IMG/VR virus record: IMGVR_UViG_3300024294_000597
Source of the DNA: a virus
DNA: 64,000 nucleotides
Reading direction: 5' to 3' (one strand)
Shown here: in pieces, positions 10,646 to 51,927 of the stretch
Layout: each line of letters starts with the position of its first letter
Position numbering within the stretch: position 1 is the stretch's first letter
The notes under the pieces: generated by a model
The model's input: only the letters and a program-made list of their open reading frames with translations
Databases searched by the model: none
Told to the model about the DNA's origin: nothing
Position numbers and translations under genes: made by a program

Positions 10646-10674
10646 AATATAACACAGATTCGTTGCATAGTCAA
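10646..10674 (-). promoter_or_regulatory. Sigma70 promoter with spacer CGAATC (GANTC at 10657)
   Basis: TTGACT ATGCAA CGAATC TGTGT TATATT. Confidence 0.7.
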
Positions 10675-10676
10675 TA

Positions 10677-11369
10677 CTAAAAATCAGTATTTTCATCTAC
10701 TGCATAGTTTGTCGCATCTGGGTCTATTGGCATTTCTGGAAGGTCTTCGTACGGAAATGCTTGAATTGAAACTGGAGAAACTGGCTGAGACATTACTTCC
10801 TCTTCTCTTCCATTTTCTCTCTGAGAAACACTATCATTTCCACTAGCATCTTCGGGTAATCCCATTCTAGGATTTACCTCTTTAAGTCCGCCACCATTTA
10901 TCCTAAAGTCATATGTAGAATATTCACCGCCATTGGTTTCTCCTCTACCTTTTAATTCACCTTCTTTATCTGAATCTGACTCCATCTTAGGACCCATTTG
11001 TTGCTTGATACCTTGTTCTGTTTTGTCTTTAGCATCTTGCATTGCTTTTTTATTATTCTTTGTATTTGGTATACTTACTGCACGTGGTTTATTTTTATTA
11101 GGTTCGATAACCCATACAAATATACTTTGTCCATCTGGAGATTCGATGTGTGATAGATATATTGAATCTTCTGGAATATTAACATTAATAGGATAACCAA
11201 GTATCTTGTCAACAGACATGTAGCTTATAGCTACAGATATCATCACTAATGGTATAATAAAACCTAACAGTAATGCATTTCTATGGTTCTTGATTGCAAA
11301 CCATAGCACAACACATGCTAGAAAAAATAGCGAAATAAATAGTGGTGCTAATTCTGCCGAATATAACAT
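10677..11369 (-). CDS. Membrane protein (2 N-terminal TM, acidic disordered tail)
   Basis: Hydrophobic N-terminus; third gene of the MotA/ExbB-like triad. Confidence 0.65.
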   Translation of the reverse strand: MLYSAELAPLFISLFFLACVVLWFAIKNHRNALLLGFIIPLVMISVAISYMSVDKILGYPINVNIPEDSIYLSHIESPDGQSIFVWVIEPNKNKPRAVSIPNTKNNKKAMQDAKDKTEQGIKQQMGPKMESDSDKEGELKGRGETNGGEYSTYDFRINGGGLKEVNPRMGLPEDASGNDSVSQRENGREEEVMSQPVSPVSIQAFPYEDLPEMPIDPDATNYAVDENTDF

Positions 11370-11392
11370 ATTGTTTCTCCATATGTAGAGGA

Positions 11393-12031
11393 CTAAAGCC
11401 CGCCTGCACTTGCCCTTCTCGTTATAATATTATTATCTAACGTATTGTATTTAACAAAATTACCATCTTTATCTATCCAAAAGTTGACTAATGGCAGTTG
11501 TTGTCCTCTTATGGAGTATTGTTTTTCACCTATTACTACTTCTACATAAGGATTAATCTTAATTACTTTAAACTTGACCACAATTTCAGATGCTTTTAAT
11601 TTCTTTCTGGCAGATGCATTTGGTGATGCTGAATATATATGTGCGGCAACTTGATATTGTCCCTTAGAAGTTCCACGCAAAGTGACAACTTCTCTATTGA
11701 TGTAGATTATATTGCGTTGTCCATATTCATCAATCGTCATATCATTGGCAGTTCCTAAATCATCTTTTTCAAGGTTCATTGCGCCTGCCATTTTCTTTAT
11801 GAAGGATACCGTATTGCCAGCTGGATCTTTAACCCATAAGTCAACATCATCAGGTAATGTATGAGGCCATTCTATAACAATCATGTACTCTGCTTTTTTA
11901 GGTACATCTTGTTTCTTTGTGATTGGGTTAATAAGGATAAAAGCAATAATGAACAGGAATACAAAACCTACTAGTAGATTAAATAGTAAGTCTGTAAATC
12001 CTACTGTACTTTTGTACTTATAACGGCTCAT
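11393..12031 (-). CDS. MotB/ExbD-like TM anchor fused to a YfaP/DUF2135-like domain
   Basis: GFTDLLFNLL: Asp in a single TM; DDVDLWVKDPAG...LEKDDLG...NRE...GQYQVAAHIY. Confidence 0.6.
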   Translation of the reverse strand: MSRYKYKSTVGFTDLLFNLLVGFVFLFIIAFILINPITKKQDVPKKAEYMIVIEWPHTLPDDVDLWVKDPAGNTVSFIKKMAGAMNLEKDDLGTANDMTIDEYGQRNIIYINREVVTLRGTSKGQYQVAAHIYSASPNASARKKLKASEIVVKFKVIKINPYVEVVIGEKQYSIRGQQLPLVNFWIDKDGNFVKYNTLDNNIITRRASAGGL

Positions 12032-12486
12032 TCGTAGTCACGACTCTCAAGATTAACTAATTGTATCTTAGTAAACTGACTGAATATTAGTCCGGTGAGA
12101 GTTGTGTACAATGCAGTACTCATTCCTAATGCCATTGCAGTGAGTGTCGATTTGAGACTGGCTGTATCTTCTACATCTAATCCTTCGAAACTAGAACCTA
12201 GCATAAGAATAAATCCTGCTACAGTTCCAATCATACCCAATGCTAACATACTTTCTGAGATAAACCATCCAATGCCTAATCCGGCTTCAATGGACTCACC
12301 TTTATTATGTTGAATAGTTAGCTTACCTATATATAGGCTTGCAAAAAAATATAATCCTATAATACCGAAACTAATTTTTGTAATATCTTTTTCGTATAAC
12401 TCATGGAATATTCCAAAGTAATGAGCGATACCCATTACAGTCAGTGATATACAAAAGAATAACCACCACCTAAGTGTCTTTGACAT
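12028..12486 (-). CDS. MotA/TolQ/ExbB proton channel family protein
   Basis: LGMIGTVAGF and GMSTALYTTLTGL signature helices. Confidence 0.8.
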   Translation of the reverse strand: MSKTLRWWLFFCISLTVMGIAHYFGIFHELYEKDITKISFGIIGLYFFASLYIGKLTIQHNKGESIEAGLGIGWFISESMLALGMIGTVAGFILMLGSSFEGLDVEDTASLKSTLTAMALGMSTALYTTLTGLIFSQFTKIQLVNLESRDYE

Positions 12487-12498
12487 GTCTTATTTTTC

Positions 12499-12738
12499 CT
12501 ATAATTTATCAACATGCTCCTGAACGCATTGAATGGCATCACCAATCGTGTGGATTAGGTTTGCGTATTCATCTTCAATCGCAATACCATAGAATTCTTC
12601 CACTTCAAATACAATTTCAACTGTATCGATACTATCAGCACCTAAGTCTTTTTTGAGATTTGTTTCATCATTCAAGTCAGTAACTTGTTTTTTCAATTTA
12701 CGTGCAACTATTTCATACACTTTGTCTTTTACTACCAT
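12499..12738 (-). CDS. acpP: Acyl carrier protein
   Basis: DLGADSIDTVEIV with the phosphopantetheine Ser; acidic, 79 aa. Confidence 0.92.
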   Translation of the reverse strand: MVVKDKVYEIVARKLKKQVTDLNDETNLKKDLGADSIDTVEIVFEVEEFYGIAIEDEYANLIHTIGDAIQCVQEHVDKL

Positions 12739-12760
12739 TATTCCCTGTAAGTCCTCTTAG

Positions 12761-13084
12761 TTATACTGAAAAGCTACTACCACACCCACATGTAGTACTC
12801 GCTCCTGGGTTATCGATTACAAATCTATCACCTTGTAGACTTGAAATGTAATCTACTTTTGCATCTGCTAGATACATAATGCTCATACTATCTACTACTA
12901 ACTTTACGCCATTAGTCTCGTAAATACTATCATCATCTTTAAGTTCTTTTTCAAAACCAAAACCATAACTGAAACCATGACACCCACCGCCTTCAACAAA
13001 CACTCTTAGTGCAGTATCAACCGATTCTCCCTGTTCAGTAATAATTTCTTCAACACGTTCTGCCGCTTTTTCTGTAAAAATCAT
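12761..13084 (-). CDS. A-type Fe-S carrier (ErpA/IscA family)
   Basis: GGGCHGFSYGF and TTCGCGSSFSV; start moved to the ATGA overlap. Confidence 0.92.
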   Translation of the reverse strand: MIFTEKAAERVEEIITEQGESVDTALRVFVEGGGCHGFSYGFGFEKELKDDDSIYETNGVKLVVDSMSIMYLADAKVDYISSLQGDRFVIDNPGASTTCGCGSSFSV

Positions 13085-13809
13085 ACTCGCCATACCTTTA
13101 TATCTCTGGACTGTTTGCTATACATAGAGTATTTCAAATCATCGTCCGTTGATTTAATTGAATAATCAACAGGGCCACCTGTCAAATATTCTTTATTATT
13201 CTTACTTTGGTACCACTTAAGACTTTCATCTGGATAGCCAATACCTAAACTGTAAGTTAAGTTATTATCTTCTGGTTTGATGCCTAACACTTCTCCCCAT
13301 ACTTCTTGACTATGCTTAGGTTCTTCTATGTAACCAAAGTTTTTTCCATAACCTGTAACATATCCCATTTGGTTTGCACTAAATGCCACTATGCCACTGG
13401 CTATACCAATCGATGTAAATGCATTATCCCATCTGCTTGATGCATTTGGGTCTCTTACACTTCCATCTTTTTCGTTATTACGAATTTCTTCTTCATTCAT
13501 TTTTCTATTAAAAACAAATAAACAATTTGCACCCATTTGAGGATTTCTTCCTACCCAATCTTTTACGCCTGGAATCATAGTGAAGCCCCATGAATGATCC
13601 TTGCATAGATAGTCTATCTTTTCTCTATCAGTAACAACATACAAATCAAAGAAACTTTCATCTTGCTTCGAAGGTGCCGTAGTTGCTAGATAGACCCAAT
13701 GGTCTATGTGGTCTTCATTAACTTTTTTAGAAAGGTCCCAGTTTCGTTGACACCTACGTGCTTGATTAATTGCATTTCTTTCTGCAATCATTTTTTCTTC
13801 GTTGGTCAT
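13081..13809 (-). CDS. Nitroreductase-fold flavoprotein
   Basis: RRCQRNWD, APSKQ, IGIASG, LGIGYP; ATGA-coupled start. Confidence 0.75.
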   Translation of the reverse strand: MTNEEKMIAERNAINQARRCQRNWDLSKKVNEDHIDHWVYLATTAPSKQDESFFDLYVVTDREKIDYLCKDHSWGFTMIPGVKDWVGRNPQMGANCLFVFNRKMNEEEIRNNEKDGSVRDPNASSRWDNAFTSIGIASGIVAFSANQMGYVTGYGKNFGYIEEPKHSQEVWGEVLGIKPEDNNLTYSLGIGYPDESLKWYQSKNNKEYLTGGPVDYSIKSTDDDLKYSMYSKQSRDIKVWRV

Positions 13810-14135
13810 ACTGTAAAACTCTCCCCACAACCACATCGTGCTTTTTCATTTGGATTGCTTACAAGTTCAAAATGCGAACTCATACTTTTCTCATCAGTAA
13901 CATAATCCAATGTTGCTTCATCGATAGTGTGAAAATATTTATGCTCTACTAGTATATCAAAATCGCTATACTTTATAGCAAAGTCATCAGTTATATTAAA
14001 ATTGTCATCTAATTGCACTTCATACATAAAGCCAGTACATCCTGCAGTTTTGATATGCAATCTTACATGTTTCTCTGGGTTTTGTGACAGCCAAGTTCTA
14101 ATTCGTTGAGTGGCGTTATCTGTTAAATACAACAT
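13806..14135 (-). CDS. A-type Fe-S carrier (IscA/SufA family)
   Basis: TAGCTGFMY and RCGCGESFTV. Confidence 0.88.
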   Translation of the reverse strand: MLYLTDNATQRIRTWLSQNPEKHVRLHIKTAGCTGFMYEVQLDDNFNITDDFAIKYSDFDILVEHKYFHTIDEATLDYVTDEKSMSSHFELVSNPNEKARCGCGESFTV

Positions 14136-14655
14136 ATGTTATCCCCTCCTCAATGTTTTCTTTTTTAGACTTTGCGTCTTGATGAATTTGTGATATTTCA
14201 TAAAATCTATTTAGTAATCCACTTGCTGTCCTGTAGTTTTGATAAACATCGATACTTTGTTCTATTTGGTCTTTGATAAATTGTGTCTGTTCTTTTAGTT
14301 CATCAATGAAGCTATTTATTTCGTCAATAGTAACCTGTTCTTCTAACTGCAACTTCAACTGATTAATAAACATCATATCATCAGGTCTTGCACCGTCTCT
14401 GAAATCATTTTCATGGCCCATTAGTTCAAGAATATACCTCGCACGTTGTATTGGATCTGCAAGAGTTTCAAAGGCTCTATTTGCAAATGATAATCTATCT
14501 TGACCTATGAATGATGCATCTTTTCTGAGTATCGTAATTATTTTTTTATAGTGTGTAGTAAGACTACGCACACTTATACCCTGCTTCTCATCGATGCCAA
14601 AGAACTTAAAGTAGTTCTTTTCTTCAAGACCATATATTCGTTTTATTCCAGACAT
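14116..14655 (-). CDS. HscB-like Fe-S co-chaperone lacking the HPD motif
   Basis: NYFKFFG...ANRAFETLADPIQRARYILELMG matches HscB; the HPD position reads RKD. Confidence 0.75.
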   Translation of the reverse strand: MSGIKRIYGLEEKNYFKFFGIDEKQGISVRSLTTHYKKIITILRKDASFIGQDRLSFANRAFETLADPIQRARYILELMGHENDFRDGARPDDMMFINQLKLQLEEQVTIDEINSFIDELKEQTQFIKDQIEQSIDVYQNYRTASGLLNRFYEISQIHQDAKSKKENIEEGITYVVFNR

Positions 14656-14698
14656 TTTTTATACCTATATTCTATAATATATCATTTGAGACACAAAG

Positions 14699-15166
14699 TC
14701 AAGTCGAAAAATCAATATTTTTTAACTTTTCAGTAAGTTCATGGTATGGTCGTAATCTTGGATCTGTCTTGTCGTTTTGATTAAATTGTAGACCATATCT
14801 CCAGCCTTCCTCTACTCGGCTAGAAACCCATCTATTGTGTCGCATTGATGATAAATCTATTTCGGTCTCACCCTCTGGGATGTCAAATTTTTCACTGGTA
14901 GTAATTTCCATAGTAAAATCTTTATCAGTCCATTTTTGCAGTAGTTGTAATACAACTTCCGCCTCCGCTTCTGTGACGGCTCTATTCATACGAAAATCAT
15001 ATACGTGAAAATCATCAAGCATATGATACACTACTGCGGTACCGTCTTCTCTTGGTTCAAAGATATTGGCAATAGCTTTATCCAGAACAGTAATCACGCC
15101 TTTAATATCGTGTTTATTCCATTCTTCTTTCATTGATAATCTAATGTGATGTTTGAACTGTGCCAT
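14699..15166 (-). CDS. RyR-domain protein
   Basis: HNRWVSSRVEEGWRYG...KTDPRLRPYHEL. Confidence 0.75.
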   Translation of the reverse strand: MAQFKHHIRLSMKEEWNKHDIKGVITVLDKAIANIFEPREDGTAVVYHMLDDFHVYDFRMNRAVTEAEAEVVLQLLQKWTDKDFTMEITTSEKFDIPEGETEIDLSSMRHNRWVSSRVEEGWRYGLQFNQNDKTDPRLRPYHELTEKLKNIDFST

Positions 15167-15181
15167 ATCTAAATTCCAATA

Positions 15182-15508
15182 TTAATATTCTTTCGGGCCT
15201 TTTGCCTCTTGTTTTTCTATAGCTGTATCTCTTGTATCTGATGCTTTCACCATTGTTGTTCCACTACGTACTTCAACTTGCTCAAACTTACTTGAACTTG
15301 AATTAACATATAAACCGAACCATGCCGCTCCAGCGCCTACAATTACTGATACCAATCCCGCTTGTTGTGTATTCGGGTCTGGTAGAGCCATAAACCATTG
15401 CGTCACATCATATAACAAATAAATGTACATACTAATAAACGCTCTTGGAAAAAGTCTCCATCTGCTAAAATATTCTGGTGCATTCCACCATATACTATTT
15501 CTATTCAT
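15182..15508 (-). CDS. Two-TM membrane protein, holin candidate
   Basis: Two TM helices and a charged C-terminal tail; GATAAATA upstream. Confidence 0.5.
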   Translation of the reverse strand: MNRNSIWWNAPEYFSRWRLFPRAFISMYIYLLYDVTQWFMALPDPNTQQAGLVSVIVGAGAAWFGLYVNSSSSKFEQVEVRSGTTMVKASDTRDTAIEKQEAKGPKEY

Positions 15509-15612
15509 TTCTTTATCCTCGCCTTTGATTATCTCTTATCATATGTATTTATCATTTGGAAATGGTGAGGTTGCGTGAATAGAGGGATTAATCTCATTAA
15601 ATTATGCAGTGA

Positions 15613-16200
15613 TTATGGTCTGACAAACCAATCTATTCGGGTGATATCAAGACCGGCAGTCGGCCTAGGTTCAGTATTAAGATATTTACAAAAATTAAGA
15701 TAAGACTCATCTAAGTTATTAGGGTCACGCATTTTACCCCAATTCCAAAAATCATTGATATGCAACTTATAATGATTATAACCTTTGATTTCTAATAACC
15801 ATTGTTTATATTCTTTTCGATTGGGAGCATCTATTACTCTATGTGGATTATTTTGATTTGAACGATGATGCAGATGTTCTAAGTCTGGTATAATAACTAT
15901 TGGCTTGGTAGTTGATGCATCTGCATCAAGCACCTGATGAGGAACTTGCGATTTAACGGCTATATCATAATTATTAAGTATAGCATCTTGTGTGGATTTA
16001 GAGATAGGTCTAGGGCTTTTTTTATTTAATACTAAATTTAAATCTTTATCTACATGCAAAGGCCCATCTAATTGCCGTGCGATACCAGTATCATTAATAG
16101 AAAAGGCTGTTGGTACTTGATAAAAGTTTCTATGTAGATTTATAAAATGACAAACTACACTCCCATAAGACCCAGGCCAAAAGACAACTGGATAAATCAT
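15613..16200 (-). CDS. Sulfotransferase-like P-loop protein (divergent)
   Basis: VVFWPGSYGSVV N-terminal loop; TAATG coupling to the upstream structural gene. Confidence 0.45.
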   Translation of the reverse strand: MIYPVVFWPGSYGSVVCHFINLHRNFYQVPTAFSINDTGIARQLDGPLHVDKDLNLVLNKKSPRPISKSTQDAILNNYDIAVKSQVPHQVLDADASTTKPIVIIPDLEHLHHRSNQNNPHRVIDAPNRKEYKQWLLEIKGYNHYKLHINDFWNWGKMRDPNNLDESYLNFCKYLNTEPRPTAGLDITRIDWFVRP

Positions 16201-16991
16201 TACGGAGTATCCGCTACTGAGCCCCAATCATCTGGCACATCGATGTTAATCCAACTACTGCCGTTATATCCTTCAAATCTACTAGTAGTTGAATTGAATC
16301 TAACCATACCTGATGTTGCTGAACCTGGTCTTTGTGCAGTTGTTCCTACTGGAAATTGTAAAGCGCCTGTAGCCGACGAACCAACTGTGCCTGATGTATA
16401 AACATCATTCCAAGTTTTAGTACTTGAACCTAAATCATAAGTTGCATCTGCATCTGGAACAATGTTTGAAACAATTTCTGCCGATAGTGCCACTGTATCT
16501 GTGTCTGCATTACCGAATGTAAGATTACCAGTTATAGTTGCATTACCTGAAACTGTTAGATTGTCTGTTATAGAAACATTACCAGAAAAATTAGCAGTAT
16601 TTGTATTAGTATTTAAAGACCATACATCACCAGTATACCCATCATATTGTAATGGTGTTTCTGCGATAGAACCCCAATCACTAGCAAGTCCGCCTACTAC
16701 TTCGTGCGGTTTCCAACTTGAAGATGAAGAATCATATCTAAGTACATATCCATCTGCTAATCCGGTTAAGTCAACATCTTCTAATTCACCTATGTAGTCA
16801 TGTGAGACTAACCATGATGATGAACTTCTATACTTAACTGTTTGTGTGTTTGTGTCAAACCAAATATCATTGTCTGCTACTGCATAGCCTGATGTATTTG
16901 GGTCACTGGTTCCTTGATAAAGGGTTACTCCAGTTTTTCCTATTTTAAAGTAAGGTACGCTGGTACCTTTTGCGTTTAATGTTACTGCCAT
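16200..16991 (-). CDS. Virion structural/fibre protein
   Basis: GYVLRYDS, PDADATYDLGSS and PVGTTAQRP...GMVRFNS...FEGYNGS fibre motifs. Confidence 0.75.
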   Translation of the reverse strand: MAVTLNAKGTSVPYFKIGKTGVTLYQGTSDPNTSGYAVADNDIWFDTNTQTVKYRSSSSWLVSHDYIGELEDVDLTGLADGYVLRYDSSSSSWKPHEVVGGLASDWGSIAETPLQYDGYTGDVWSLNTNTNTANFSGNVSITDNLTVSGNATITGNLTFGNADTDTVALSAEIVSNIVPDADATYDLGSSTKTWNDVYTSGTVGSSATGALQFPVGTTAQRPGSATSGMVRFNSTTSRFEGYNGSSWINIDVPDDWGSVADTP

Positions 16992-17087
16992 ATCTTCCTC
17001 AACGTTCTGTTTTTTTAAAGTCAGTGATTTCTCACTGTCGTTAAGTTATAGTATTACTTATCTATTTATCATAATTGTCAGAAAGGC

Positions 17088-17119
17088 AAAAAAAAGAGGG
17101 GACCCTTTCGGACCCCCTC
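17088..17119 (-). terminator. Intrinsic terminator after the 1594-aa gene
   Basis: GAGGGGGTCC-GAAA-GGGTCCCCTC followed by T8. Confidence 0.9.
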
Positions 17120-17146
17120 CCTTATATAGTATATAACAAGTCTAAC

Positions 17147-35450: not shown

Positions 35451-35478
35451 GTGATGAGGGAGTTCGCTCCCTCATTAT
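35451..35478. terminator. Hairpin between convergent genes
   Basis: GTGATGAGGGAG-TTCG-CTCCCTCATTAT. Confidence 0.75.
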
Positions 35479-36059
35479 TACCTATGATTTGGTATAACGA
35501 TATCTACAATCTCAGACCAAGTATCAACAACCGGAATATCTTGTACATCTGCACCTACGCTGTGTGCATGACTTATAAGAATTGGTTTCAACCCATACTT
35601 GAGACCACAAACTGCATTCTCAGGCTTATCTTCAATCCAATACAGCCCTGTTCCTTCGTAAGGTAAAAGACCTTCGTCTTTATCAGCACCGGTATCTAAA
35701 CAAACAAGTTCAGTAAATACCCCTTTTCCAAATACATCATCTAAGTTTTGCTGTCTTAGTGCTTTTGTATTTTCATCTAAACTTAATGAAGTGACACAGT
35801 GAAAAGTGTAACCTGCTTCTACCAGAGCGGCAACACCGCTTCTTGCATCACGCAAGACAGGAAGATTAAGCATCCATGAACTATTGTTGAATTCTTTGAT
35901 TAGTTTTTTAACTTCAACTTTTTTCATAGCAAATACGTCTGCCATGTTATAGACACCTTCATTTTGTGTGTCATATCCTTTTGATTTCATCCATTGATAA
36001 AAAGAAGTTTCCCAATCGAGGAGAACCCCATCACAATCTGTCACTATAATTTTCTGCAT
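35478..36059 (-). CDS. HAD-family 5'(3')-nucleotidase
   Basis: TDCDGVLLDW and WIEDK. Confidence 0.8.
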   Translation of the reverse strand: MQKIIVTDCDGVLLDWETSFYQWMKSKGYDTQNEGVYNMADVFAMKKVEVKKLIKEFNNSSWMLNLPVLRDARSGVAALVEAGYTFHCVTSLSLDENTKALRQQNLDDVFGKGVFTELVCLDTGADKDEGLLPYEGTGLYWIEDKPENAVCGLKYGLKPILISHAHSVGADVQDIPVVDTWSEIVDIVIPNHR

Positions 36060-36086: not shown

Positions 36087-36117
36087 TATATAATAGCATG
36101 ATTCGTAATTTTGTCAA
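36087..36117 (-). promoter_or_regulatory. Sigma70 promoter with spacer CGAATC (GANTC at 36100)
   Basis: TTGACA AAATTA CGAATC ATGC TATTAT. Confidence 0.8.
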
Positions 36118-38593: not shown

Positions 38594-38596
38594 GTG

Positions 38597-38935: not shown

Positions 38936-38936
38936 A

Positions 38937-39338: not shown

Positions 39339-39342
39339 TTTT

Positions 39343-40381: not shown

Positions 40382-40423
40382 TCTTTTGTTTATTATAATT
40401 CCTTTTTTGAACTTTGTCAAGAC

Positions 40424-41031: not shown

Positions 41032-41040
41032 TTTATATTC

Positions 41041-41253: not shown

Positions 41254-41312
41254 AAGTTTCTCCTCTGAGTTATATACATAATAATAACACTAAACACATA
41301 AAGTGTCAAGTG

Positions 41313-41741
41313 TTATTTTTTTAGTTTTTCTATTTCTTGTGAATTAGCGGCTATCTTCTCGTCTTGCACTTTGTCTATGAGCGCCTTCATCTTTAATGCT
41401 ACTTCCTCATCTGTGTCAACGTGTAGGTCTTTTTTGATAACTTTCTCTAATTTTAGTACTGGTATTCTTTCATTTGGAACATATCTCCATGTGTATCCTC
41501 TATCAGAATAAACACCAAATACAGTTTGTCTTGCACCAATCTTTACAATCATTGCTAGTTCGCCATCAAGTAGTACTTCATCGCCTTCATTAAATGCAGG
41601 ATCCATTTTGAATTTTAATCCTTTAGCCAATCCTGTAGCAAAGTCTTTAAACCATATGGCAACAACTAAAGATATTAAGACACCAATCCATGGTAGTAAG
41701 AAATCAGATAATTCCATGCTTAGTGAGTTAAGGTCTGTCAT
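41313..41741 (-). CDS. Minimal MscS-like channel protein
   Basis: KDFATGLAKGL...FNEGDEVLLDG...IVKIGARQT...VPN; start at MTDLNS after TATAAATA and GGGAGA. Confidence 0.7.
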   Translation of the reverse strand: MTDLNSLSMELSDFLLPWIGVLISLVVAIWFKDFATGLAKGLKFKMDPAFNEGDEVLLDGELAMIVKIGARQTVFGVYSDRGYTWRYVPNERIPVLKLEKVIKKDLHVDTDEEVALKMKALIDKVQDEKIAANSQEIEKLKK

Positions 41742-41794
41742 TTTGTCTCTCCCATTATAGTCGTATTTATACAATAATTGACATTGACGGCTAT

Positions 41795-41896
41795 TTGACG
41801 GTGTCAATTTTTTGAATGGATTTTATGTCAAATTTATTTTTTTACAATATAATATAATTTACGTAGAAAGCACGTTTCCTGTGTCAATTTTTTGAA
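41795..41896. promoter_or_regulatory. Repeated operator-like motif GTGTCAATTTTTTGAA
   Basis: Exact 16-mer at 41801 and 41881; partial copy at 41825; TTGAC-GGT-GTCAA palindrome at 41795. Confidence 0.5.
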
Positions 41897-42016
41897 CTTA
41901 AATGATAAATATTAACATTGAGTAAAGTTTGTACTTAAAGTATAAATTTACATGGTTAATAACTGAGCATGAATGTATTAAACACTTCATATCTTGGACT
42001 TAGAGGAGACACTTAC

Positions 42017-42607
42017 ATGAGCCTAAAAAAGAAATTTCTTTCTCATAATATTGCCTTGGCAACTATCTTTATTATATTAATGGGTGCTATTAGTATTCCT
42101 GTGTCTGCGGATGCGGATCCTATCGTTACTAATTCTACTAGTAATAGCACAGTTAAGTCTAATAATGATACCGACACTACCGTAAAAAGCCCACCACCTA
42201 GTGCGATATCGCCTTCCATTAATGGAAGTAATTCTGATTTATGTACTGTTGGTGTCAGTGGTGCAGTACAAACACAGATTTTAGGTGTGTCTACCGGGCA
42301 AACTTATAGGGATGCCAATTGTGAAAGGCTCAAACTTTCTAAAACACTATACGACATGGGTATGAAGGTCGCGGCGGTCTCAGTAATGTGCCAAGACCGA
42401 AGAGTGTTTGATGCTATGTCTATGGCAGGTACCCCTTGTCCATATAATGGTAAAATTGGCGAAGAAGCATATGAACTGTGGAAGAAAAATCCACAAGAAA
42501 TGCCTAAAAAGGTTTATGTAGATGATGAAAAGAGAATTGCAAAAGAAGGGATGCGTGAAGGGCTTACTATTGCAGGCGTTCTTGCTTTGCTGGCTTTCGC
42601 TCTGTAA
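42017..42607 (+). CDS. Secreted, C-terminally anchored Cys-containing protein
   Basis: GAGGAG RBS; signal peptide; DLC, NCER, MCQD, TPCP; C-terminal hydrophobic anchor. Confidence 0.7.
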   Translation: MSLKKKFLSHNIALATIFIILMGAISIPVSADADPIVTNSTSNSTVKSNNDTDTTVKSPPPSAISPSINGSNSDLCTVGVSGAVQTQILGVSTGQTYRDANCERLKLSKTLYDMGMKVAAVSVMCQDRRVFDAMSMAGTPCPYNGKIGEEAYELWKKNPQEMPKKVYVDDEKRIAKEGMREGLTIAGVLALLAFAL

Positions 42608-45600: not shown

Positions 45601-45698
45601 AAAAGATACCGGAAAATCAGAGAGGATTACGCAATGGTTTAGCAAGTGAAATATTACATGAGAAAATGGTTGATATGCAATATGAGGGGATGGAATAA
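42522..45698 (+). CDS. Large secreted protein with 17 C-x9-C repeats and a Glu-rich stalk
   Basis: Signal peptide, ~22-aa repeats, acidic region, basic segment. Confidence 0.8.
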   Translation: MMKRELQKKGCVKGLLLQAFLLCWLSLCNIAYATDTTAPDNPTTTSPDTLDLDDGTISNPTYGCPAGTSAAYVYGSGSSVRWGECQNTFAISYAINQALQGTGVSIDKVHYQWKYIHCFNEPGKFCSVDIEDRVNLSTGEITDDTYWDELVVVVEVTDSSGNVVETKTWTMDTWYDWTSSNSHSTNEVQEGTTVWQIHEDNIEIYNHIDKVGTIRTPNALGDVRFRITGYDKGNWDGYYGPIVNDIKTWFTYRANPCNDTALYDPSCPGYATAYAAWEYDQNCAANALYDPGCPGYSTAYFNQQCSADPLYDSGCDGYAEAYYNQQCSADPLYDSGCDGYAAAYLTQQCNLDQHHSSECPYYNWAITTVTAGWGENAAGQGSDFIEIVKASSTDRWWALWYNESEIDAGDWVAKCKTYDDGCEDAVISSITFNYSNGQHYAFLYTKDTDGNTFIPTNGDKYRFLTKTQLDTYCDSSSLYSPMCDGYAAAYFTQQCTANPLYNSECDGYAAAYLEQQCGISALHSTSCSGYAAAYLAQQCSLNPLHDSSCSGYATAYFNQQCSLDALYNSECPGYDTAYFNQQCSLDATYNSECPGYESAYFTQQCNADPLYNSECSGYDTAYFTQQCTANPLYNSECSGYDTAYFNQQCGLSALYNSECDGYDEAYLSQQCGINTLYDSSCDGYEEAYTLAQCNENPLYAESCEGYDISYFNQQCSFDPQYDTQCPGYQAPVEDTVDPVAIDDGISTGDAVVDSIIATPDLPTVNLIPELPAIEVEILPVTPIEPEVVEVPVPDAVEQIEIEIEAEIEQLEMELEVPEDTSSNDTMELEVETEESEPETIEDIAEESTENEDTSEESTESNEEESTEEESTEEESTEEESTDEENESEENTDESENEESEEESEEVEESESEEEATEEDEAEEESESEESETKSDTKTEAKPKSTKKQPLTKEQKRKAKIKKMKQIIKDKLKQLADVMGKAVSLEQQQALQAQITALINYVPGFNAYSESYIPGRDFYLPDDIYLDKKIPENQRGLRNGLASEILHEKMVDMQYEGME
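43290..44700 (+). repeat. Coding 66-nt tandem repeats (5 + 12 units, YFNQQCxxxPLYNSECxGYxxA)
   Basis: Units counted in the translation; the two blocks are separated by a ~110-aa insert. Confidence 0.9.
45108..45165 (+). repeat. 15-nt coding repeat GAAGAAAGTACAGAA (EEEST)
   Basis: Directly visible tandem copies. Confidence 0.85.
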
Positions 45699-46027
45699 TG
45701 TTAAATTGTTTAGTATTGGGTTTGGCACTTTCAGCACATGTGGGATTAGAAGGAAAATATAACAATCTTCACCCATATGCAATGTGTGAAACCGAAAAGA
45801 CTATTGTAGGAACTTACTATAATAGTTTAGACCGATGGAGTCTTATTGGGGCATATAAATATAGTCTTAATAAAGACCTGTCATTAGATATTGGCGTTGC
45901 CACTGGATATGACTATGATGTTGTACCAATGGCTAGATTAAGATATAAAAACTTATTCGTTATGCCAACTGTTGAAGATGAAGAAAGGACTGGTGTCGTG
46001 TTTGGCATACAGTTTGAATTAAAATAG
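45698..46027 (+). CDS. Small outer-membrane beta-barrel (PagP-like fold, putative)
   Basis: SAH, YYNS, GVATGY, alternating strands, C-terminal FGIQF signal. Confidence 0.55.
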   Translation: MLNCLVLGLALSAHVGLEGKYNNLHPYAMCETEKTIVGTYYNSLDRWSLIGAYKYSLNKDLSLDIGVATGYDYDVVPMARLRYKNLFVMPTVEDEERTGVVFGIQFELK

Positions 46028-46036
46028 GAGCAACTT

Positions 46037-46546
46037 ATGAGTGACAAAACAACAGTAGAAGTTGGTGGAGTTAAATTCACTGGTGGAAAGTTATTTTTAG
46101 TTATAACAATTCTGAGTACACTTGGTGGCGCCGCATGGGGAGGCTTTGAATTTTATAATGACTATAGAAATATGAAAGCCAAGATAGAACGCTATGTAGC
46201 ACCAGACTTAAGTGGAATTAGAGCAGAACTACAAGTAGTTAACACAAAACTTGATGAAGCATTAGACTATTCTAAAGATATTAAAAACGGATTACGTGAT
46301 GATATTGTTAGATTGGAACGTATTGTAGATTCAATAGAAGATGATATTAACAAAGTAGAAGATAATGTACGTGAACAGATTGATTTAGCTGACCAGCGTT
46401 TTGAAAATAAACGTGACCAGTTACTTACAGACTATGAACAAAAAGCAGATAGTTTACGCACAAGCACTGATTTAAAACTTAAAGAACTAGAAACTAGATT
46501 GAATAAACGTTTGCAAAGGGCGTTAGACAATCCATTAGCAAATTAA
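46037..46546 (+). CDS. Single-TM coiled-coil protein
   Basis: TM followed by heptads; AGGAG RBS. Confidence 0.7.
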   Translation: MSDKTTVEVGGVKFTGGKLFLVITILSTLGGAAWGGFEFYNDYRNMKAKIERYVAPDLSGIRAELQVVNTKLDEALDYSKDIKNGLRDDIVRLERIVDSIEDDINKVEDNVREQIDLADQRFENKRDQLLTDYEQKADSLRTSTDLKLKELETRLNKRLQRALDNPLAN

Positions 46547-46550
46547 TAAT

Positions 46551-46628
46551 TGGTCGGGGTGGTAGGATTCGAACCTACGCTCTCCTGGTCCCAAACCAGG
46601 CGCTTTAGCCAGACTAAGCTACACCCCG
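46551..46628 (-). tRNA. tRNA-Pro(TGG)
   Basis: CGGGGTGTAGCTTAGTCTGGCTAAAGCGCCTGGTTTGGGACCAGG...ACCA. Confidence 0.95.
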
Positions 46629-46632
46629 ATAA

Positions 46633-46977
46633 TTATGGTAAACAAGGTTTAATAGAATTCTTATAATACAAAACCGTTTTATCATTTGTTGTTTCTACAC
46701 GATGGATTACCGATTCTTTTGGTCGTCCAAAACATTTATTCAAACTTTGACCTGGAAAACGATAACGAGTATTCATTTTTAGAAACTCCCACTGTTTTGC
46801 ATTTCGAATTCTAATATTCTCATTTCTTTTGCTATCAATACAAAAAGCAACATCTGACAAGTTATCATAATCAGCCATACACTTTTTTGCAATAAAGTTT
46901 TTAGCATCCGCGCCCGTAGAGATTAGTAAACACGTAATCAATACGGTTGCAAATTGAGCCGATAATTTAGTATCCAT
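46633..46977 (-). CDS. Secreted hypothetical protein
   Basis: Signal peptide and Cys pairs. Confidence 0.55.
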   Translation of the reverse strand: MDTKLSAQFATVLITCLLISTGADAKNFIAKKCMADYDNLSDVAFCIDSKRNENIRIRNAKQWEFLKMNTRYRFPGQSLNKCFGRPKESVIHRVETTNDKTVLYYKNSIKPCLP

Positions 46978-47135
46978 TATTCAGGCTCCACCCAAGGATA
47001 ACAAGGAATAATACTTTGCTTACAATAACGAGCATTATCTACCAATAGGAATGGAACTCCTACAATAAAGAACAAAATAATAGCAAATGCTTTACCTAGT
47101 CCTTTTAGTGTGCAATAATTAGTTTGTTCACTCAT
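46977..47135 (-). CDS. Small membrane protein
   Basis: Start at MSEQTN; one TM. Confidence 0.5.
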   Translation of the reverse strand: MSEQTNYCTLKGLGKAFAIILFFIVGVPFLLVDNARYCKQSIIPCYPWVEPE

Positions 47136-47556
47136 GTTCGCCACCTCGGCCTCGACCAAAGCCACCAAAATATTGTGGCTTGCGTTTTGCTGTTTCGAAT
47201 GTTGCTACAGTAATAGCAATGGCACCAAGTAATAGTGTATGTAGCATCATACTGAACACTCCTGCCCACATGCTACCTACAATAATAGCAAATACAATAC
47301 ACCACATCCATGCTAATACTTGCATAATCATATGTCGTGTACTAAAATCTGGAATATTACTTAGTGGATTCTTTTCGTGATCCATTACTACATTCCAACT
47401 GTTAAAAATAAATTCTCTCATTGATATTACCTTTCTAAATATTATCTTTGTAGGATAATGAGCATCCATATCATCACGATATTCAATCGCATCATGTACA
47501 TCATGGAATTCTTGGGATATTTTTTTATCCTTAAACCATGCCGTTACTTTATACAT
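47128..47556 (-). CDS. Membrane protein (NPLSNIPD...QVLAWMWC family)
   Basis: Two TM; AAGGA RBS. Confidence 0.6.
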   Translation of the reverse strand: MYKVTAWFKDKKISQEFHDVHDAIEYRDDMDAHYPTKIIFRKVISMREFIFNSWNVVMDHEKNPLSNIPDFSTRHMIMQVLAWMWCIVFAIIVGSMWAGVFSMMLHTLLLGAIAITVATFETAKRKPQYFGGFGRGRGGEHE

Positions 47557-47573
47557 CTATTATCCTTTCTTCT

Positions 47574-47647
47574 TGGCATCGGTGCAGGGAGTCGAACCCC
47601 GGCTTACAGTTTTGGAGACTGTCGTGCTACCGTAACACTTCACCGAT
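47574..47647 (-). tRNA. tRNA-Trp(CCA)
   Basis: ACAGTCTCCAAAACTGT anticodon arm; GGTTCGACTCC; CCA end. Confidence 0.93.
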
Positions 47648-47653
47648 AAATTT

Positions 47654-47730
47654 TGGTAGACCCCGCCGGACTTGAACCGACACTCGACCCGTTATGAGCG
47701 GGTGGCTTTAACCAATTAAGCTAGAGGTCT
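47654..47730 (-). tRNA. tRNA with CAT anticodon, probably Ile2 (lysidine)
   Basis: CCCGCTCATAACGGG arm; lacks initiator features; resembles bacterial tRNA-Ile2. Confidence 0.85.
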
Positions 47731-47737
47731 ATAATAT

Positions 47738-47815
47738 TGGCCTCCACTAGAGGACTCGAACCTCTGACCTAGTGCTTAGAAGGCACTTGCTCTAATCCAA
47801 CTGAGCTAAGTGGAG
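47738..47815 (-). tRNA. tRNA-Arg(TCT)
   Basis: AGTGCCTTCTAAGCACT arm; CCA end. Confidence 0.95.
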
Positions 47816-47823
47816 AAATTAAA

Positions 47824-47898
47824 TGGTACACCCTACGAGAATCGAACTCGTCTTTCCAGGTTGAAAACCTGGCGTCCTAACCGATAGACGAAGGGTGC
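47824..47898 (-). tRNA. tRNA-Glu(TTC)
   Basis: CCAGGTTTTCAACCTGG arm; CCA end. Confidence 0.95.
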
Positions 47899-47906
47899 GT
47901 AATGAT

Positions 47907-47993
47907 TGGTGCCTCCTCCCGGACTCGAACCGGGACGCTTTTAAAGGCGAGAGATTTTAAGTCTCTTGTGTCTACCTATTCCACCAAGGAGGC
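47907..47993 (-). tRNA. tRNA-Leu(TAA)
   Basis: AGAGACTTAAAATCTCT arm, long variable arm, CCA end. Confidence 0.95.
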
Positions 47994-47998
47994 TAAAC

Positions 47999-48292
47999 TT
48001 AAACATCTTCCTCCATTGGTTGTTCGGTTGAAATCGTATGCATCTTCATAATGATGAAGTCTATATCATCGGGTGTTAATCCCTGTCGAACTGTATTATC
48101 TTTTTCTGTAATACCTGGTAGTTCGGTTAGTTCATCATTTACCAATGCACCAATTTCGTAAAGTGGTTTATGGGATTCTTTAATGACACTTAGTGCATAT
48201 TTAGAACCAAAGTTAATACGAGTACGCATTATGCGACCAGAATTATCTGATTTAAATGTTAGGTCACTAAATTTTAAACGAGATTTAAGCAT
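47999..48292 (-). CDS. Hypothetical early protein
   Basis: Start moved to MLKSRL, overlapping the upstream stop. Confidence 0.55.
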   Translation of the reverse strand: MLKSRLKFSDLTFKSDNSGRIMRTRINFGSKYALSVIKESHKPLYEIGALVNDELTELPGITEKDNTVRQGLTPDDIDFIIMKMHTISTEQPMEEDV

Positions 48293-48458
48293 TATAATTA
48301 GGCGCCATATCACGCTCAAATTGGTTAACGACCATTTTCTTATCTTCAATCATTCGTTCAATGATTGCATAGCCGCTACGCTTTTCGTCACTTGCACCTT
48401 CTGTGATAAGAATAAGTGCATTCTCTAAACTTTCGATGTCATTCAATAAATCTATCAT
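48285..48458 (-). CDS. Small protein (57 aa, MIDLLNDIESLENAL...EGASDEKR), not in ORF track
   Basis: ATGA overlap with the upstream gene; AAGGA RBS. Confidence 0.6.
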   Translation of the reverse strand: MIDLLNDIESLENALILITEGASDEKRSGYAIIERMIEDKKMVVNQFERDMAPNYNA

Positions 48459-48676
48459 GAGTAATCCTTCTCAATCCATTCTGTTGCATCACCTGTATAC
48501 ATTACACCATAGAACTGTGTATTGATACAATTTGGTCCGGTATATTTCCAACGCACATCCATACACATGCCACTGGCAGATCCGGTTTCTTTAACTGCGT
48601 AACCAATCTCTACTAAATCTCCAAAGCAGTACTCACGTGCACCACCGGCTTCGATAATATTTGGACACATATTCAT
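48455..48676 (-). CDS. Hypothetical early protein
   Basis: Start moved downstream of a TTGACA-17 nt-TATACT promoter that overlaps the previous gene end. Confidence 0.55.
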   Translation of the reverse strand: MNMCPNIIEAGGAREYCFGDLVEIGYAVKETGSASGMCMDVRWKYTGPNCINTQFYGVMYTGDATEWIEKDYS

Positions 48677-48735
48677 GTCAATCTCTGCCTTAAGATTAGT
48701 TTGTTTTGTTTGATTACTTAAGTTAGTATACATGA

Positions 48736-49059
48736 TTATGAGCCTACTGTCAACTCAATAAAATCATTTTCTACATTATAATCCAGTTGTTCAACGTAGA
48801 CACCCCAATACCCACAAGCATCCATAAGATGTTGTGAAGCCTTGAGAACAGAAGGAACGTCCCATTCACCGTTGACTACTTTAACTTTGTGACCTGATGC
48901 CCACTGCATCATAAAGAAATCATCCGTATTCAAACGATAGTCGGCCATATCGGTTCGCAATTCATATTCGCCATCTGCAATACCCATTGCTTTTGTTGTC
49001 TCACAATCGAATACCATACGGTTTTCGTTAAGATTTGAATAGATAGATTGATTTGTCAT
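48736..49059 (-). CDS. Hypothetical early protein
   Basis: Has its own promoter cassette. Confidence 0.65.
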   Translation of the reverse strand: MTNQSIYSNLNENRMVFDCETTKAMGIADGEYELRTDMADYRLNTDDFFMMQWASGHKVKVVNGEWDVPSVLKASQHLMDACGYWGVYVEQLDYNVENDFIELTVGS

Positions 49060-49061
49060 AG

Positions 49062-49122
49062 TGATTCTCTTTCTCTTTGATTACTTAATTAATATAGCAC
49101 GATTCGTAATATTGTCAAGTTT
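49062..49122 (-). promoter_or_regulatory. Early promoter/leader repeat, copy 1 (GANTC at 49101 and 49063)
   Basis: TTGACA ATATTA CGAATC GTGC TATATT; 59 of 61 nt identical to 49369-49429. Confidence 0.85.
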
Positions 49123-49366
49123 AAAATTCAGCAACTTCGTTGGTTACAAGATTACGCATTTCAAGTATTACATATGGAACCTTGGTTGACATTGTTACTT
49201 TACCAGCCCAATCACATGCGTCTTCCCAATCAACAAAATTCATTGTTTCTACTGTTTCAAGACCTTCGGCAATCCCTGACAAATGATATTTCTTCATTTC
49301 AACTTTGAACTGCATACCTAAAAAATCTGATTTAAGTGTTTCAAGCATTTGAATTTCATTTTGCAT
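49121..49366 (-). CDS. Hypothetical early protein
   Basis: Flanked by 61-nt direct repeats. Confidence 0.65.
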   Translation of the reverse strand: MQNEIQMLETLKSDFLGMQFKVEMKKYHLSGIAEGLETVETMNFVDWEDACDWAGKVTMSTKVPYVILEMRNLVTNEVAEF

Positions 49367-49368
49367 AA

Positions 49369-49429
49369 TGATTCTCTTTCTCTCTGATTACTTAATTAAT
49401 ATAGCACGATTCGTGATATTGTCAAGTTT
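49369..49429 (-). promoter_or_regulatory. Early promoter/leader repeat, copy 2 (GANTC at 49408 and 49370)
   Basis: TTGACA ATATCA CGAATC GTGC TATATT. Confidence 0.85.
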
Positions 49430-49590
49430 TATATAGCAAGTATTAATTTCATTTCGTTAACAATATCTTTGTATGTTTGAATCTTCTTTTCAATCGCATA
49501 CTTTTTCATTTTTACTGATGAAGTGTTACCAGCAAAAGTAGTTAGATATTTTTCTAACTTTTTGATTTCGTTTTCGTATTGTTCTATCAT
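49429..49590 (-). CDS. Small protein (53 aa, MIEQYENEIKKLEKY), not in ORF track
   Basis: Own promoter and GAGAGAG leader. Confidence 0.6.
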   Translation of the reverse strand: MIEQYENEIKKLEKYLTTFAGNTSSVKMKKYAIEKKIQTYKDIVNEMKLILAI

Positions 49591-49614
49591 TTTTCTCTCT
49601 CTTGATTATGTATT

Positions 49615-49643
49615 TAATATAACACGATTCGGGGATTTGTCAA
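49615..49643 (-). promoter_or_regulatory. Sigma70 promoter with spacer CGAATC (GANTC at 49626)
   Basis: TTGACA AATCCC CGAATC GTGT TATATT. Confidence 0.8.
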
Positions 49644-49647
49644 GTTT

Positions 49648-50775
49648 TTAGTCGTCCCTTTCACCATATCCATAATCGATAACAACTGGAAATCTTGGAA
49701 CGCCATCATTAGATAATTCAAAGTATCTGCAAGTAGCCCACGTGGGAGTTTCAGCATTTAGGAGTTCTTTTAATTTCTCTTGTGAACCTCTAACACCTGA
49801 ACTGAATTTTGTACCATTTGCAAGTTGAAGATTAAACCTTTTTGCATAACCTGACCAGTTACCATTACCTTCCTCAATACTTACTACAGTAAATTCTTCT
49901 GTGATAAATTCTTTTCGCTTTAGAAGATTTTTACTTCTCTTACATTCGTAAGCAGTATCCTGTCTAACCATTTGACCTTCATACCCTGCCTCTGTGTATT
50001 CACCATACATTTTATCAATTTCGGCAGTAGTATCTGTTTTAGTAGTTTCAACTAAAACAACCATTAATGGATTAGCAAACTTTCCAACATTATCTTCTAA
50101 CCATTTACTTCTTTCAGTAAATGTCATATCTGGATTGTTTTTATCAAACATATCATAAACATGATACTCAACTAATTCTGCACTCTCGGCAATTTCTTCT
50201 GGTCTACATTTTACTTTTCTAACAAGCGAAACAATCTTTTGAAAGTCTGCTTTAAGATTATGATTGTAAAGTTCACCATCTAAAACTACACTAGGATTAT
50301 TATCAATTATAGTTTGTAGAGTTTTCATAATGTGCGGACAACTATTGATTGGCTTTCCGCTCCTTGAATTCATACCATGTTTATCAACTAAACATCTAAT
50401 ACCATCTAGTTTCGGTTGTGTGTAACCGCTAGTAACTGGCTTCTTTGTAAAATCATTAGCTAACATAGGTTTGAATAGTTCGTAACTATCAACATCATCT
50501 ATGTTTTCAAAATATTCTTTATCTGCTTTTTGGTCCCAACTAGATTTTGCTTCTGAAATGGCTTGGGTCTTGGCAGTTGTTCCATTTGCTTTGCCAACAT
50601 TCTTAGCAATAGACATATTCCATTCGCTAGTAACTTTCTGACCATCAATCAACCCGGCAATAGTTCTTGTACCAGCAACATCATCCGAATCAAAACCGTA
50701 TTCTACAGTCCAAATCCTTAATTTGCCCTTTGTATCTCTTTTATATAAACTCGCCAAACTTGTGATATTTTGCAT
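49648..50775 (-). CDS. ATP-dependent DNA ligase
   Basis: QPKLDGIR, LDGELY, EGQMVR, LLKRK, PRFP. Confidence 0.93.
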   Translation of the reverse strand: MQNITSLASLYKRDTKGKLRIWTVEYGFDSDDVAGTRTIAGLIDGQKVTSEWNMSIAKNVGKANGTTAKTQAISEAKSSWDQKADKEYFENIDDVDSYELFKPMLANDFTKKPVTSGYTQPKLDGIRCLVDKHGMNSRSGKPINSCPHIMKTLQTIIDNNPSVVLDGELYNHNLKADFQKIVSLVRKVKCRPEEIAESAELVEYHVYDMFDKNNPDMTFTERSKWLEDNVGKFANPLMVVLVETTKTDTTAEIDKMYGEYTEAGYEGQMVRQDTAYECKRSKNLLKRKEFITEEFTVVSIEEGNGNWSGYAKRFNLQLANGTKFSSGVRGSQEKLKELLNAETPTWATCRYFELSNDGVPRFPVVIDYGYGERDD

Positions 50776-50819
50776 ATTTTCTCCTGATCCTGATTATGTA
50801 TATATAATAACATGGAATG

Positions 50820-51212
50820 CTATTTTGTCAAGTTTTTTTCAGCATTTCGGTATGCTTTTAGCATAACTTCCTGCATATCAAATGCTTCAATTTCCCAAGG
50901 ACGCTTTAAGTAAGGAACATCAGAACACTCAAATAGTGGATGTTCTTTTCTTACATCTTGTTTAATATGTACAAATTCGTGGAATATGCTTGTAAGTAAA
51001 TCATCTTCACTCAAACCCTTACGTACACGCATTGTATATTCACGGTATTCATCACCGCTTATTACGTCTGCATCAACTTTGATATTAGGGCGAATTTCAA
51101 TATCTATTTCTATATTCTTGTGCCGTGGGAGCAAGTAGTCCTTAGCAAACCAAAGTGCCTTAACTACCAATTCTTTCTCTTTTTTCAGGCCGCCTTTTAT
51201 AGAATATAGCAT
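50820..51212 (-). CDS. Zn-metallopeptidase-like protein
   Basis: HEFVH...PWEIEA. Confidence 0.75.
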   Translation of the reverse strand: MLYSIKGGLKKEKELVVKALWFAKDYLLPRHKNIEIDIEIRPNIKVDADVISGDEYREYTMRVRKGLSEDDLLTSIFHEFVHIKQDVRKEHPLFECSDVPYLKRPWEIEAFDMQEVMLKAYRNAEKNLTK

Positions 51213-51264
51213 ATTTTTCTCTCATTGATATTTACTAGGATATTCTTGGTATTAAATGCGTAGA

Positions 51265-51870
51265 TTATTGTGCTACGTTGTCTCCGAATTCAGAGTAATT
51301 GTGAAAAACATAGTTCCAAAGTTGACTGATATTTTCAATTTCTGAACCTAACTTTAGAGCATATGTTGAAATCTGATTTGATACAGAATTATAATCAACA
51401 TCATCTAACAGACAATCTTCAAGCATTTTTGTAACGCATTCTTTTACTTGAACATAACGCATGTTTTCTAGTTTACGTGCAACCCATTTCTTACCTGCAT
51501 AACGTCCTGTCTGCATACGTACTTTTGGGTCACGTGTAATGCAAGTGTATCCTTCTGATTCATAGATTTCAGAAAATAACTGATACTCAGATTGTAAATC
51601 TTCTTTATCAACATCACCTAATTCTTCATAAGAAACAGTCCATTCATCTTTTTTAGTACTGCTAAGAATTCGTAGGAAAGTTGTAGTAGAACCTGATTGA
51701 GCAGAATCTTTTCCTGAAAGAGCATATGCGGCTTTTGAAAACGCATTTGTAACTGTTACGTTCTGCTTATAATTTTCTTGTGAAGTTTGCCAAATGTGAT
51801 ACATTTTTCGAGTATCATTTGCAAAAATGCAAAATGTATGGGGAACTTTAATTGTTTCTAACTCTGACAT
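51265..51870 (-). CDS. Hypothetical early protein
   Basis: AAGGA RBS; GANTC promoter upstream. Confidence 0.6.
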   Translation of the reverse strand: MSELETIKVPHTFCIFANDTRKMYHIWQTSQENYKQNVTVTNAFSKAAYALSGKDSAQSGSTTTFLRILSSTKKDEWTVSYEELGDVDKEDLQSEYQLFSEIYESEGYTCITRDPKVRMQTGRYAGKKWVARKLENMRYVQVKECVTKMLEDCLLDDVDYNSVSNQISTYALKLGSEIENISQLWNYVFHNYSEFGDNVAQ

Positions 51871-51898
51871 ACTAAGTCCTTTTTTCTGAGTATGTATA

Positions 51899-51927
51899 TA
51901 CTATAACACGATTCGCTAGTTTGTCAA
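51899..51927 (-). promoter_or_regulatory. Sigma70 promoter with spacer CGAATC (GANTC at 51910)
   Basis: TTGACA AACTAG CGAATC GTGT TATAGT. Confidence 0.8.

Follow-up and report, generated by a model that had tools for sequence, protein, structure and literature searches.

Sigma70-type promoters of a marine jumbo phage clade carry a GANTC site that probably serves as a GcrA box

The stretch of viral DNA analyzed here, IMG/VR virus record IMGVR_UViG_3300024294_000597 (64,000 nucleotides in full; hereafter the window), codes for phage structural proteins, a ClpA-like ATPase, an RFC-type clamp loader, an ATP-dependent ligase and radical SAM enzymes, together with 10 tRNA genes, most of which have anticodons for A/U-ending codons. 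Our subject is a family of promoters in this DNA that feature a GANTC site at a set place in the spacer between the -35 and -10 boxes. An earlier note had described six of these on the minus strand, and a pattern scan returned the same coordinates and the same N6 words: TTGACW-N6-CGAATC has six matches in the 64-kb window, on the minus strand every time, against a shuffle expectation of 0.01 (none of 100 shuffles reached six), with the plus-strand GATTC at 10657, 36100, 49101, 49408, 49626 and 51910. Also as described there, five of the six read YGATTCG on the plus strand, two have a second GATTC in the leader (plus-strand 49063 and 49370), and the promoters of the ligase (50831) and at 48753, 40420 and 2073 have no GANTC. 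YGAKTCG occurs nine times in the window, five of them in the six promoters, and the site is missing from canonical promoters with a 17-bp spacer (48753, 41309, 40420, 2073 and others). The six promoters, and a seventh of the same family that lacks the site, are as follows.

10646-10674, minus strand: class-A promoter with a 17-bp spacer, TTGACT-ATGCAA-CGAATC-TGTGT-TATATT, before an open reading frame (ORF) of 61 amino acids (aa) (10451-10636)
36090-36117, minus strand: class-A promoter, TTGACA-AAATTA-CGAATC-ATGC-TATTAT, before a 193-aa ORF (35478-36059)
49091-49118, minus strand: class-A promoter, TTGACA-ATATTA-CGAATC-GTGC-TATATT, before a 107-aa ORF (48736-49059), with the leader GAATC seen as plus-strand GATTC at 49063
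49398-49425, minus strand: class-A promoter, TTGACA-ATATCA-CGAATC-GTGC-TATATT, before an 81-aa ORF (49121-49366), with the leader GAATC at 49370
49616-49643, minus strand: class-A promoter, TTGACA-AATCCC-CGAATC-GTGT-TATATT, before a 53-aa ORF (49429-49590), with an identical copy at 340307 in the complete relative G001 (see below)
51900-51927, minus strand: class-A promoter, TTGACA-AACTAG-CGAATC-GTGT-TATAGT, before a 201-aa ORF (51265-51870)
50804-50831, minus strand: family member that has no GANTC, TTGACA-AAATAG-CATTCC-ATGT-TATTAT, upstream of the gene for the ATP-dependent DNA ligase (49648-50775)

All six GANTC promoters start 2-5 nt past the stop codon of the upstream ORF and are followed by a co-oriented ORF of 53-201 aa. 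Their alignment reveals a conserved block longer than had been stated earlier, AAAC-TTGACA-N6-CGAATC-(G/A)TG-Y-TATATT, with a conserved A-TAATCA downstream of it in the initial transcribed region. Five combine a 16-bp spacer with an extended -10 (TGn), and the promoter at 10646-10674 has 17 bp, with one base added after CGAATC. The promoters at 49101 and 49408 are almost copies of each other, which makes the six less than fully independent. The consensus of the class is AAAC-TTGACA-N6-(C/A)GAWTC-RTGY-TATATT, in which the sigma70-type elements TTGACA and TGn-TATATT are present with a spacer of 16-17 bp. Downstream of the promoter at 10646-10674 and its 61-aa ORF are genes for tRNA-Thr and tRNA-Leu. 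The 201-aa ORF behind the promoter at 51927 (51265-51870, minus) is missing from G001 and several metagenome contigs, which retain the promoter and both flanks, and it behaves as a presence/absence cassette in the population.

G001 (IMG/VR contig 3300020469_003050), which is ~83% identical to the window and syntenic with it, is a contig of 342,607 bp with direct terminal repeats, rated complete and of 34.8% GC; it served as the complete relative for whole-genome analyses of the window's phage. Four further large fragments (G002-G005) are each rated 28-51% complete and therefore point to genomes of ~350 kb, like G001. The closest cultured relative is the Pseudomonas jumbo phage PA5oct, whose clamp loader is 57.6% and whose ClpA-like protein is 46.5% identical, and with which there is a syntenic structural/replication block. 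The best explanation is that the window belongs to a ~340-kb marine jumbo phage distantly related to PA5oct; by inference only, its ten tRNA genes are what might be expected if an AT-rich phage infected a GC-rich host, as PA5oct does. The index of a public assembly collection has the exact ligase protein in 247 blocks, and the six places listed are ENA and Joint Genome Institute metagenome records. A megablast of window positions 48000-53000 against GenBank phages and an exact 40-mer search of IMG/VR gave no match, and the capsid-region protein has no relatives in bacterial genomes or metagenome-assembled genomes (MAGs). The bacterial homologues of the ClpA-like ATPase, at only 39-45% identity and from scattered phyla, are uninformative save for phage contigs in the MAG SI073_bin67 (see below). 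The match of a short ORF at 55904-56467 to PF07733, the NTPase domain of DNA polymerase III alpha, is confined to the beginning of that domain, and the PA5oct counterpart of the ORF is 46% identical.

The site recurs throughout this clade. A strict pattern, CTTGACA-N6-CGAATCGTG-N-TAT, is found in 100 IMG/VR stretches against ~1 expected, with a GC content of 32-39% for all matches listed; together with the ligase in 247 assembly blocks, this indicates that the marine clade is widespread. Class-A promoters were also defined irrespective of spacer content (AA[AC]TTGAC[AT]-N16-TAnnnT) and counted in G001-G005 plus the window, where ~33 of 43 display GA[AT]TC at spacer positions 8-12. Positional enrichment, which the earlier note had put forward as a check, is evident genome-wide: TTGAC followed by GANTC at a gap of 8 occurs 22 times in G001, as against ~1.5 times at other gaps. 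In a compilation of 92 distinct spacers, pattern-selected loci included, GANTC lies at positions 8-12 in 69 and at 7-11 in five, in the variants CGAATC, AGAATC, CGATTC, GGAATC and TGATTC, and in the part of the spacer upstream of the extended -10 TG, information content is highest at positions 8, 9 and 12, which hold the G, A and C of GA.TC. Between orthologous promoters, the center base may be swapped (CGATTC at G001 127554 and CGAATC at G002 10077), the site may shift by 1 nt (G001 119019 and G002 2359) and the flank may change between A and C. Because flanks, center base and 1-nt position all vary, the selected unit is the 5-mer GAWTC and neither the hexamer CGAATC nor the whole cassette. 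In PA5oct, the 16-bp-spacer class is absent and a search for GANTC in spacers gave zero matches; inheritance of the element from the PA5oct lineage was thus considered and rejected.

GcrA and CcrM constitute the textbook epigenetic cell-cycle module of alphaproteobacteria, and to our knowledge, no role of the module beyond the control of cellular genes has been described. GcrA prefers the methylated site TGATTCG/YGAKTCK, and its boxes are either narrowly centered at -20 or spread from +2 to +30 (Haakonsen 2015, PMC4647560), with upstream boxes at -20 +/- 1 and -30 +/- 2 (Wu 2023, PMC9976885). The non-template strand of the GcrA activation complex solved by cryo-electron microscopy reads TTGACA-CCCGGG-CG(m6A)ATC-CCTGC-TATAAT, where m6A is N6-methyladenine (Wu 2023, PMC9976885). 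The phage class matches this Caulobacter scaffold, TTGACA-N6-CGAATC-N5-(-10), in strand, 5′ flank and distance from the -35 box; the spacing of the promoter at 10646-10674 is identical to it, and the scaffold exceeds the other five by one nt. If the -10 hexamer is placed at -12 to -7, the center of GANTC is at -19 in 36 of 63 non-redundant 16-bp-spacer clade promoters and at -20 in the 17-bp forms, and a minor cluster at +19 to +22 includes the leader sites 49063 and 49370. The flanks fit YGAKTCK in 60 of 62 GAATC sites (YGATTCK on the lower strand) and in seven of seven GATTC sites (YGATTCG on the upper strand). A subset of class-A leaders has its second GAATC between the ribosome-binding site and the start codon (GAGAATCAYTATG), a position that falls within the +5 to +30 range of downstream GcrA boxes.

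Because GANTC sits where GcrA binds, the phage probably borrows the host GcrA to start these genes. Our preferred reading, which we hold to be reasonably probable, is that the class-A elements are phage promoters with a built-in GcrA box, made for the GcrA-loaded sigma70 RNA polymerase (RNAP) of an alphaproteobacterial host. In this presumed host, GcrA would be bound to the RNAP through sigma70 domain 2 and would set its DNA-binding domain on GANTC, on the spacer face opposite the polymerase, potentially raising promoter engagement and open-complex formation, as in Caulobacter PcsM. As the phage relative encodes no methylase of this kind (see below), we propose that the site is methylated by the host CcrM. 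We infer the host, GcrA binding, methylation and the early timing of the genes, the label "early" only from how small they are and how near they lie to the genome end.

The same architecture is seen in two phages that have no relationship to the jumbo clade: RcXuper, which infects Rhodobacter capsulatus, and DSS3P8, which infects Ruegeria pomeroyi. Both are CbK-like 147-kb siphoviruses of Rhodobacterales with a GC content of 56-62%. TTGAC-N8-10-GANTC occurs at 15 sites in RcXuper and 11 in DSS3P8 against ~2-4 expected, and most of these read (C/A)GAATC(G/A)TG. Five sites that we compared with the record annotation are 58-67 nt upstream of small co-oriented hypothetical genes near the record end. 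The phage phiCbK exhibits a mild excess of the pattern (9 versus 1 for the control); T4, a Vibrio phage and a Ralstonia phage have no excess over the control pattern, and PA5oct has none in the histogram of TTGAC-to-GANTC gaps. The RcXuper and DSS3P8 promoters differ from those of the jumbo clade in their -10 region and in an extra downstream CCGAAACG element; (A/T)CCGAAACG lies ~20-25 nt downstream of GAATC at 139286, 140876 and 142735 in RcXuper and at 887, 142325 and 143223 in DSS3P8. Neither phage encodes GcrA or a PF01555 methylase, and we found no publication describing their GANTC promoters.

About 10 ORFs are common to G001 and RcXuper/DSS3P8. The genes common with DSS3P8 suggest gene exchange in a common host pool. 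DSS3P8 homologues (~32% identity) of an LPD29-domain protein and a SleB-type cell-wall hydrolase are directly behind G001 class-A promoters (235493-235915, 317293-317976), which hints at early-gene exchange between unrelated phages. We also sought a phage regulator common to G001 and RcXuper/DSS3P8, and recognized none among the shared genes examined: the six ORFs inspected (LPD29 protein, cell-wall hydrolase, deoxynucleoside monophosphate kinase, cytidylyltransferase, PhoH-like protein and ligase) include no recognizable DNA-binding regulator.

Outside these promoters, the clade avoids the word. Ranked by depletion among ~500 5-mers, GAATC/GATTC comes first or close to first in each of the six clade sequences, with observed/expected ratios of 0.48-0.66 and z = -13 in G001. 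GANTC is also clearly depleted in the alphaproteobacterial phages Cr30 (0.79, rank 2), Atu_ph07 (0.79, rank 5) and DSS3P8 (0.82 and 0.78), and GASTC is depleted in phiCbK (0.58); GANTC is not depleted in RcXuper (0.93). There is no depletion in PA5oct (1.10), T4 (0.98) or a Vibrio jumbo phage (1.15), and Ralstonia phage RsoM2USA is marginal (0.92), so that the tally is four of five alphaproteobacterial phages versus none of four non-alphaproteobacterial ones. The window and G001-G003 also avoid GATC (observed/expected 0.25), TCTAGA (0.03-0.08), CTGCAG, AGCT, GGATCC, CATCTC and CTGAAG; PA5oct displays no comparable avoidance of GATC or TCTAGA.

As to the host, when the ligase was compared with 1,111 phage records, alphaproteobacterial phages supplied every one of the 15 best matches, with RcXuper, MD18 and DSS3P8 at the top. 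In the MAG "Alphaproteobacteria bacterium SI073_bin67", the bacterial contigs have 59-60% GC, and there is a GcrA gene and a CcrM orthologue that is 63-70% identical to CcrM across the class; at least five further contigs in this MAG come from a related phage of 34-35% GC. A scan of bacterial genomes with a loosened pattern gave chance-like matches across all phyla; the pattern is too weak for this purpose and casts no vote on the host. The putative alphaproteobacterial host on which the earlier note had made its proposal depend is favored by the shared architecture in Rhodobacterales phages, by GANTC depletion and, weakly, by the co-binned MAG, and disfavored by the Pseudomonas host of PA5oct.

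Several observations weigh against GcrA control. The earlier note had called for a search for gcrA and ccrM-like genes, and both came back empty: GcrA (PF07750) is found in none of five clade records, the complete G001 included, and G001 has no PF01555 or PF02086 methylase, nor does the window have a DPPY or GcrA-like motif. With no GANTC methylase in G001, methylation of virion DNA is doubtful. The nearest cultured relative, PA5oct, infects Pseudomonas, a gammaproteobacterium, and has neither the promoter class nor the depletion. The phage contigs in SI073_bin67, although their binning is not explained by composition, are a weak pointer, co-binning being the sole link. About a quarter of class-A promoters have no GANTC site, and the G001 orthologue (10694) of the window promoter at 36117 has a 17-bp spacer and no GANTC. 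The depletion, for its part, is not specific on its own, because the clade avoids many other restriction-like words, and Cr30 and Atu_ph07 have depletion but no TTGAC-to-GANTC positional peak. The core of the earlier proposal, a CcrM/GcrA-type box in the spacer and an alphaproteobacterial host, is well supported, though short of proof, by the flanks, orientation and position of the site, by its variation, by the depletion and by the Rhodobacterales phages.

Three leads to a methylase in G001 were followed up. A weak PF01555 match is a radical SAM/SPASM protein and not a methylase, and a DPPY/NPPY regular expression returned an exoribonuclease, which was not accepted as a GANTC methylase. A 181-aa ORF at G001 63455-64000 (L105:3455-4000) has an NPPY motif and matches Eco57I-type methylases below threshold (E 0.009), too weakly for an assignment; nothing else in G001 resembled a methylase, and this ORF was likewise not accepted as a GANTC methylase.

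A further difficulty leads to the best-surviving alternative. The site center is A in 62 cases, T in seven and never G or C, and the clade depletion is strong for GAWTC and weak for GASTC, so that a GAWTC-specific reader or restriction enzyme would also fit. GAWTC could in that case be the operator or activator site of another protein, a phage early regulator or a host factor other than GcrA, and the host need not be alphaproteobacterial, which would sit well with the Pseudomonas host of the nearest cultured relative; most phage ORFs, moreover, have no assigned function. We nevertheless think this unlikely: classical operators tend to be longer than a conserved unit of 5-7 bp, the site tolerates both a reversed orientation and the 1-nt shift, the architecture recurs in unrelated Rhodobacterales phages whose examined shared genes include no recognizable DNA-binding protein, and PA5oct is without the element, whereas geometry and flanks fit GcrA exactly.

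CGAATC might instead be a functionless word in a promoter cassette that spreads by duplication and recombination. Mobile early promoter cassettes are present in T4-type phages; here, 49101 and 49408 are near-identical copies, many small ORFs are preceded by a member of the promoter family, and strains differ in the cassettes they have. We consider this decidedly improbable: the adjoining N6 varies while GAWTC is kept, center-base swaps and the 1-nt shift preserve GANTC, no 5-mer is avoided more strongly elsewhere in the genome, and the high-GC phages carry the GAATC core while sharing only TTGAC and that core. Least credible of all, and to our minds barely tenable, is a direct action of the site on RNAP contact or spacer geometry (an extended -16/-17 region) with no cofactor and no methylation, to which the abutting RTG-n-TATATT and the non-optimal 16-bp spacer lend some color, but a polymerase contact reading GA.TC at -21 to -17 is not known to us, inversion of the asymmetric center is tolerated, the site occurs with 17-bp spacers too, and the sigma70-type promoters of PA5oct, T4, the Vibrio phage and the Ralstonia phage have no such preference.

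If the class-A promoters do carry a GcrA box, phages would exploit a methylation reader for take-over by placing it inside their strongest host-type promoters. A speculative extension builds on the methylation timer that the earlier note had envisaged: the promoter class might sense host cell-cycle state and methylation, with fully methylated incoming DNA transcribed well only in cells that hold GcrA (S phase). As the phage has no GANTC methylase, its rapidly replicating DNA is proposed to be hemi- or unmethylated, and methylation diluted by replication could switch the promoters off with no need for a phage repressor; if unrelated phage lineages use it convergently, GcrA could be a general phage entry point in alphaproteobacteria. 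We rate this extension as an outside chance. The joint presence of a GANTC positional peak and GANTC depletion could also serve as a sequence-only marker for linking a phage known only from sequence to an alphaproteobacterial host. Phage use of GcrA is open to direct test in two cultured systems, DSS3P8 on Ruegeria pomeroyi and RcXuper on Rhodobacter capsulatus. We found no publication describing GANTC/GcrA boxes in phage promoters.

Among known systems, PA5oct (Arenbergviridae) resembles the window phage in its GC content (33%) and in its host-type TTGACA/TATAAT promoters. Unlike some alphaproteobacterial phages that possess their own GcrA/CcrM module, the complete relative G001 encodes neither GcrA nor a GANTC methylase. 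The middle promoters of T4 are also a class defined by an extra short box, the MotA box, which replaces the -35 and is read by phage proteins; the phage class described here differs in that it keeps both sigma70 elements and its box matches the site of a host cofactor. With Caulobacter PcsM-type promoters, it has in common the sigma70 -35 and -10, a spacer GANTC at about -20 and GAATC on the non-template strand, and like the downstream type of Caulobacter GcrA promoters, it has a minor set of sites at about +20. It is distinguished from the Caulobacter GcrA promoters by being phage-borne and AT-rich, by its E. coli-like -10 boxes and by its occurrence as a repeated family before small ORFs.

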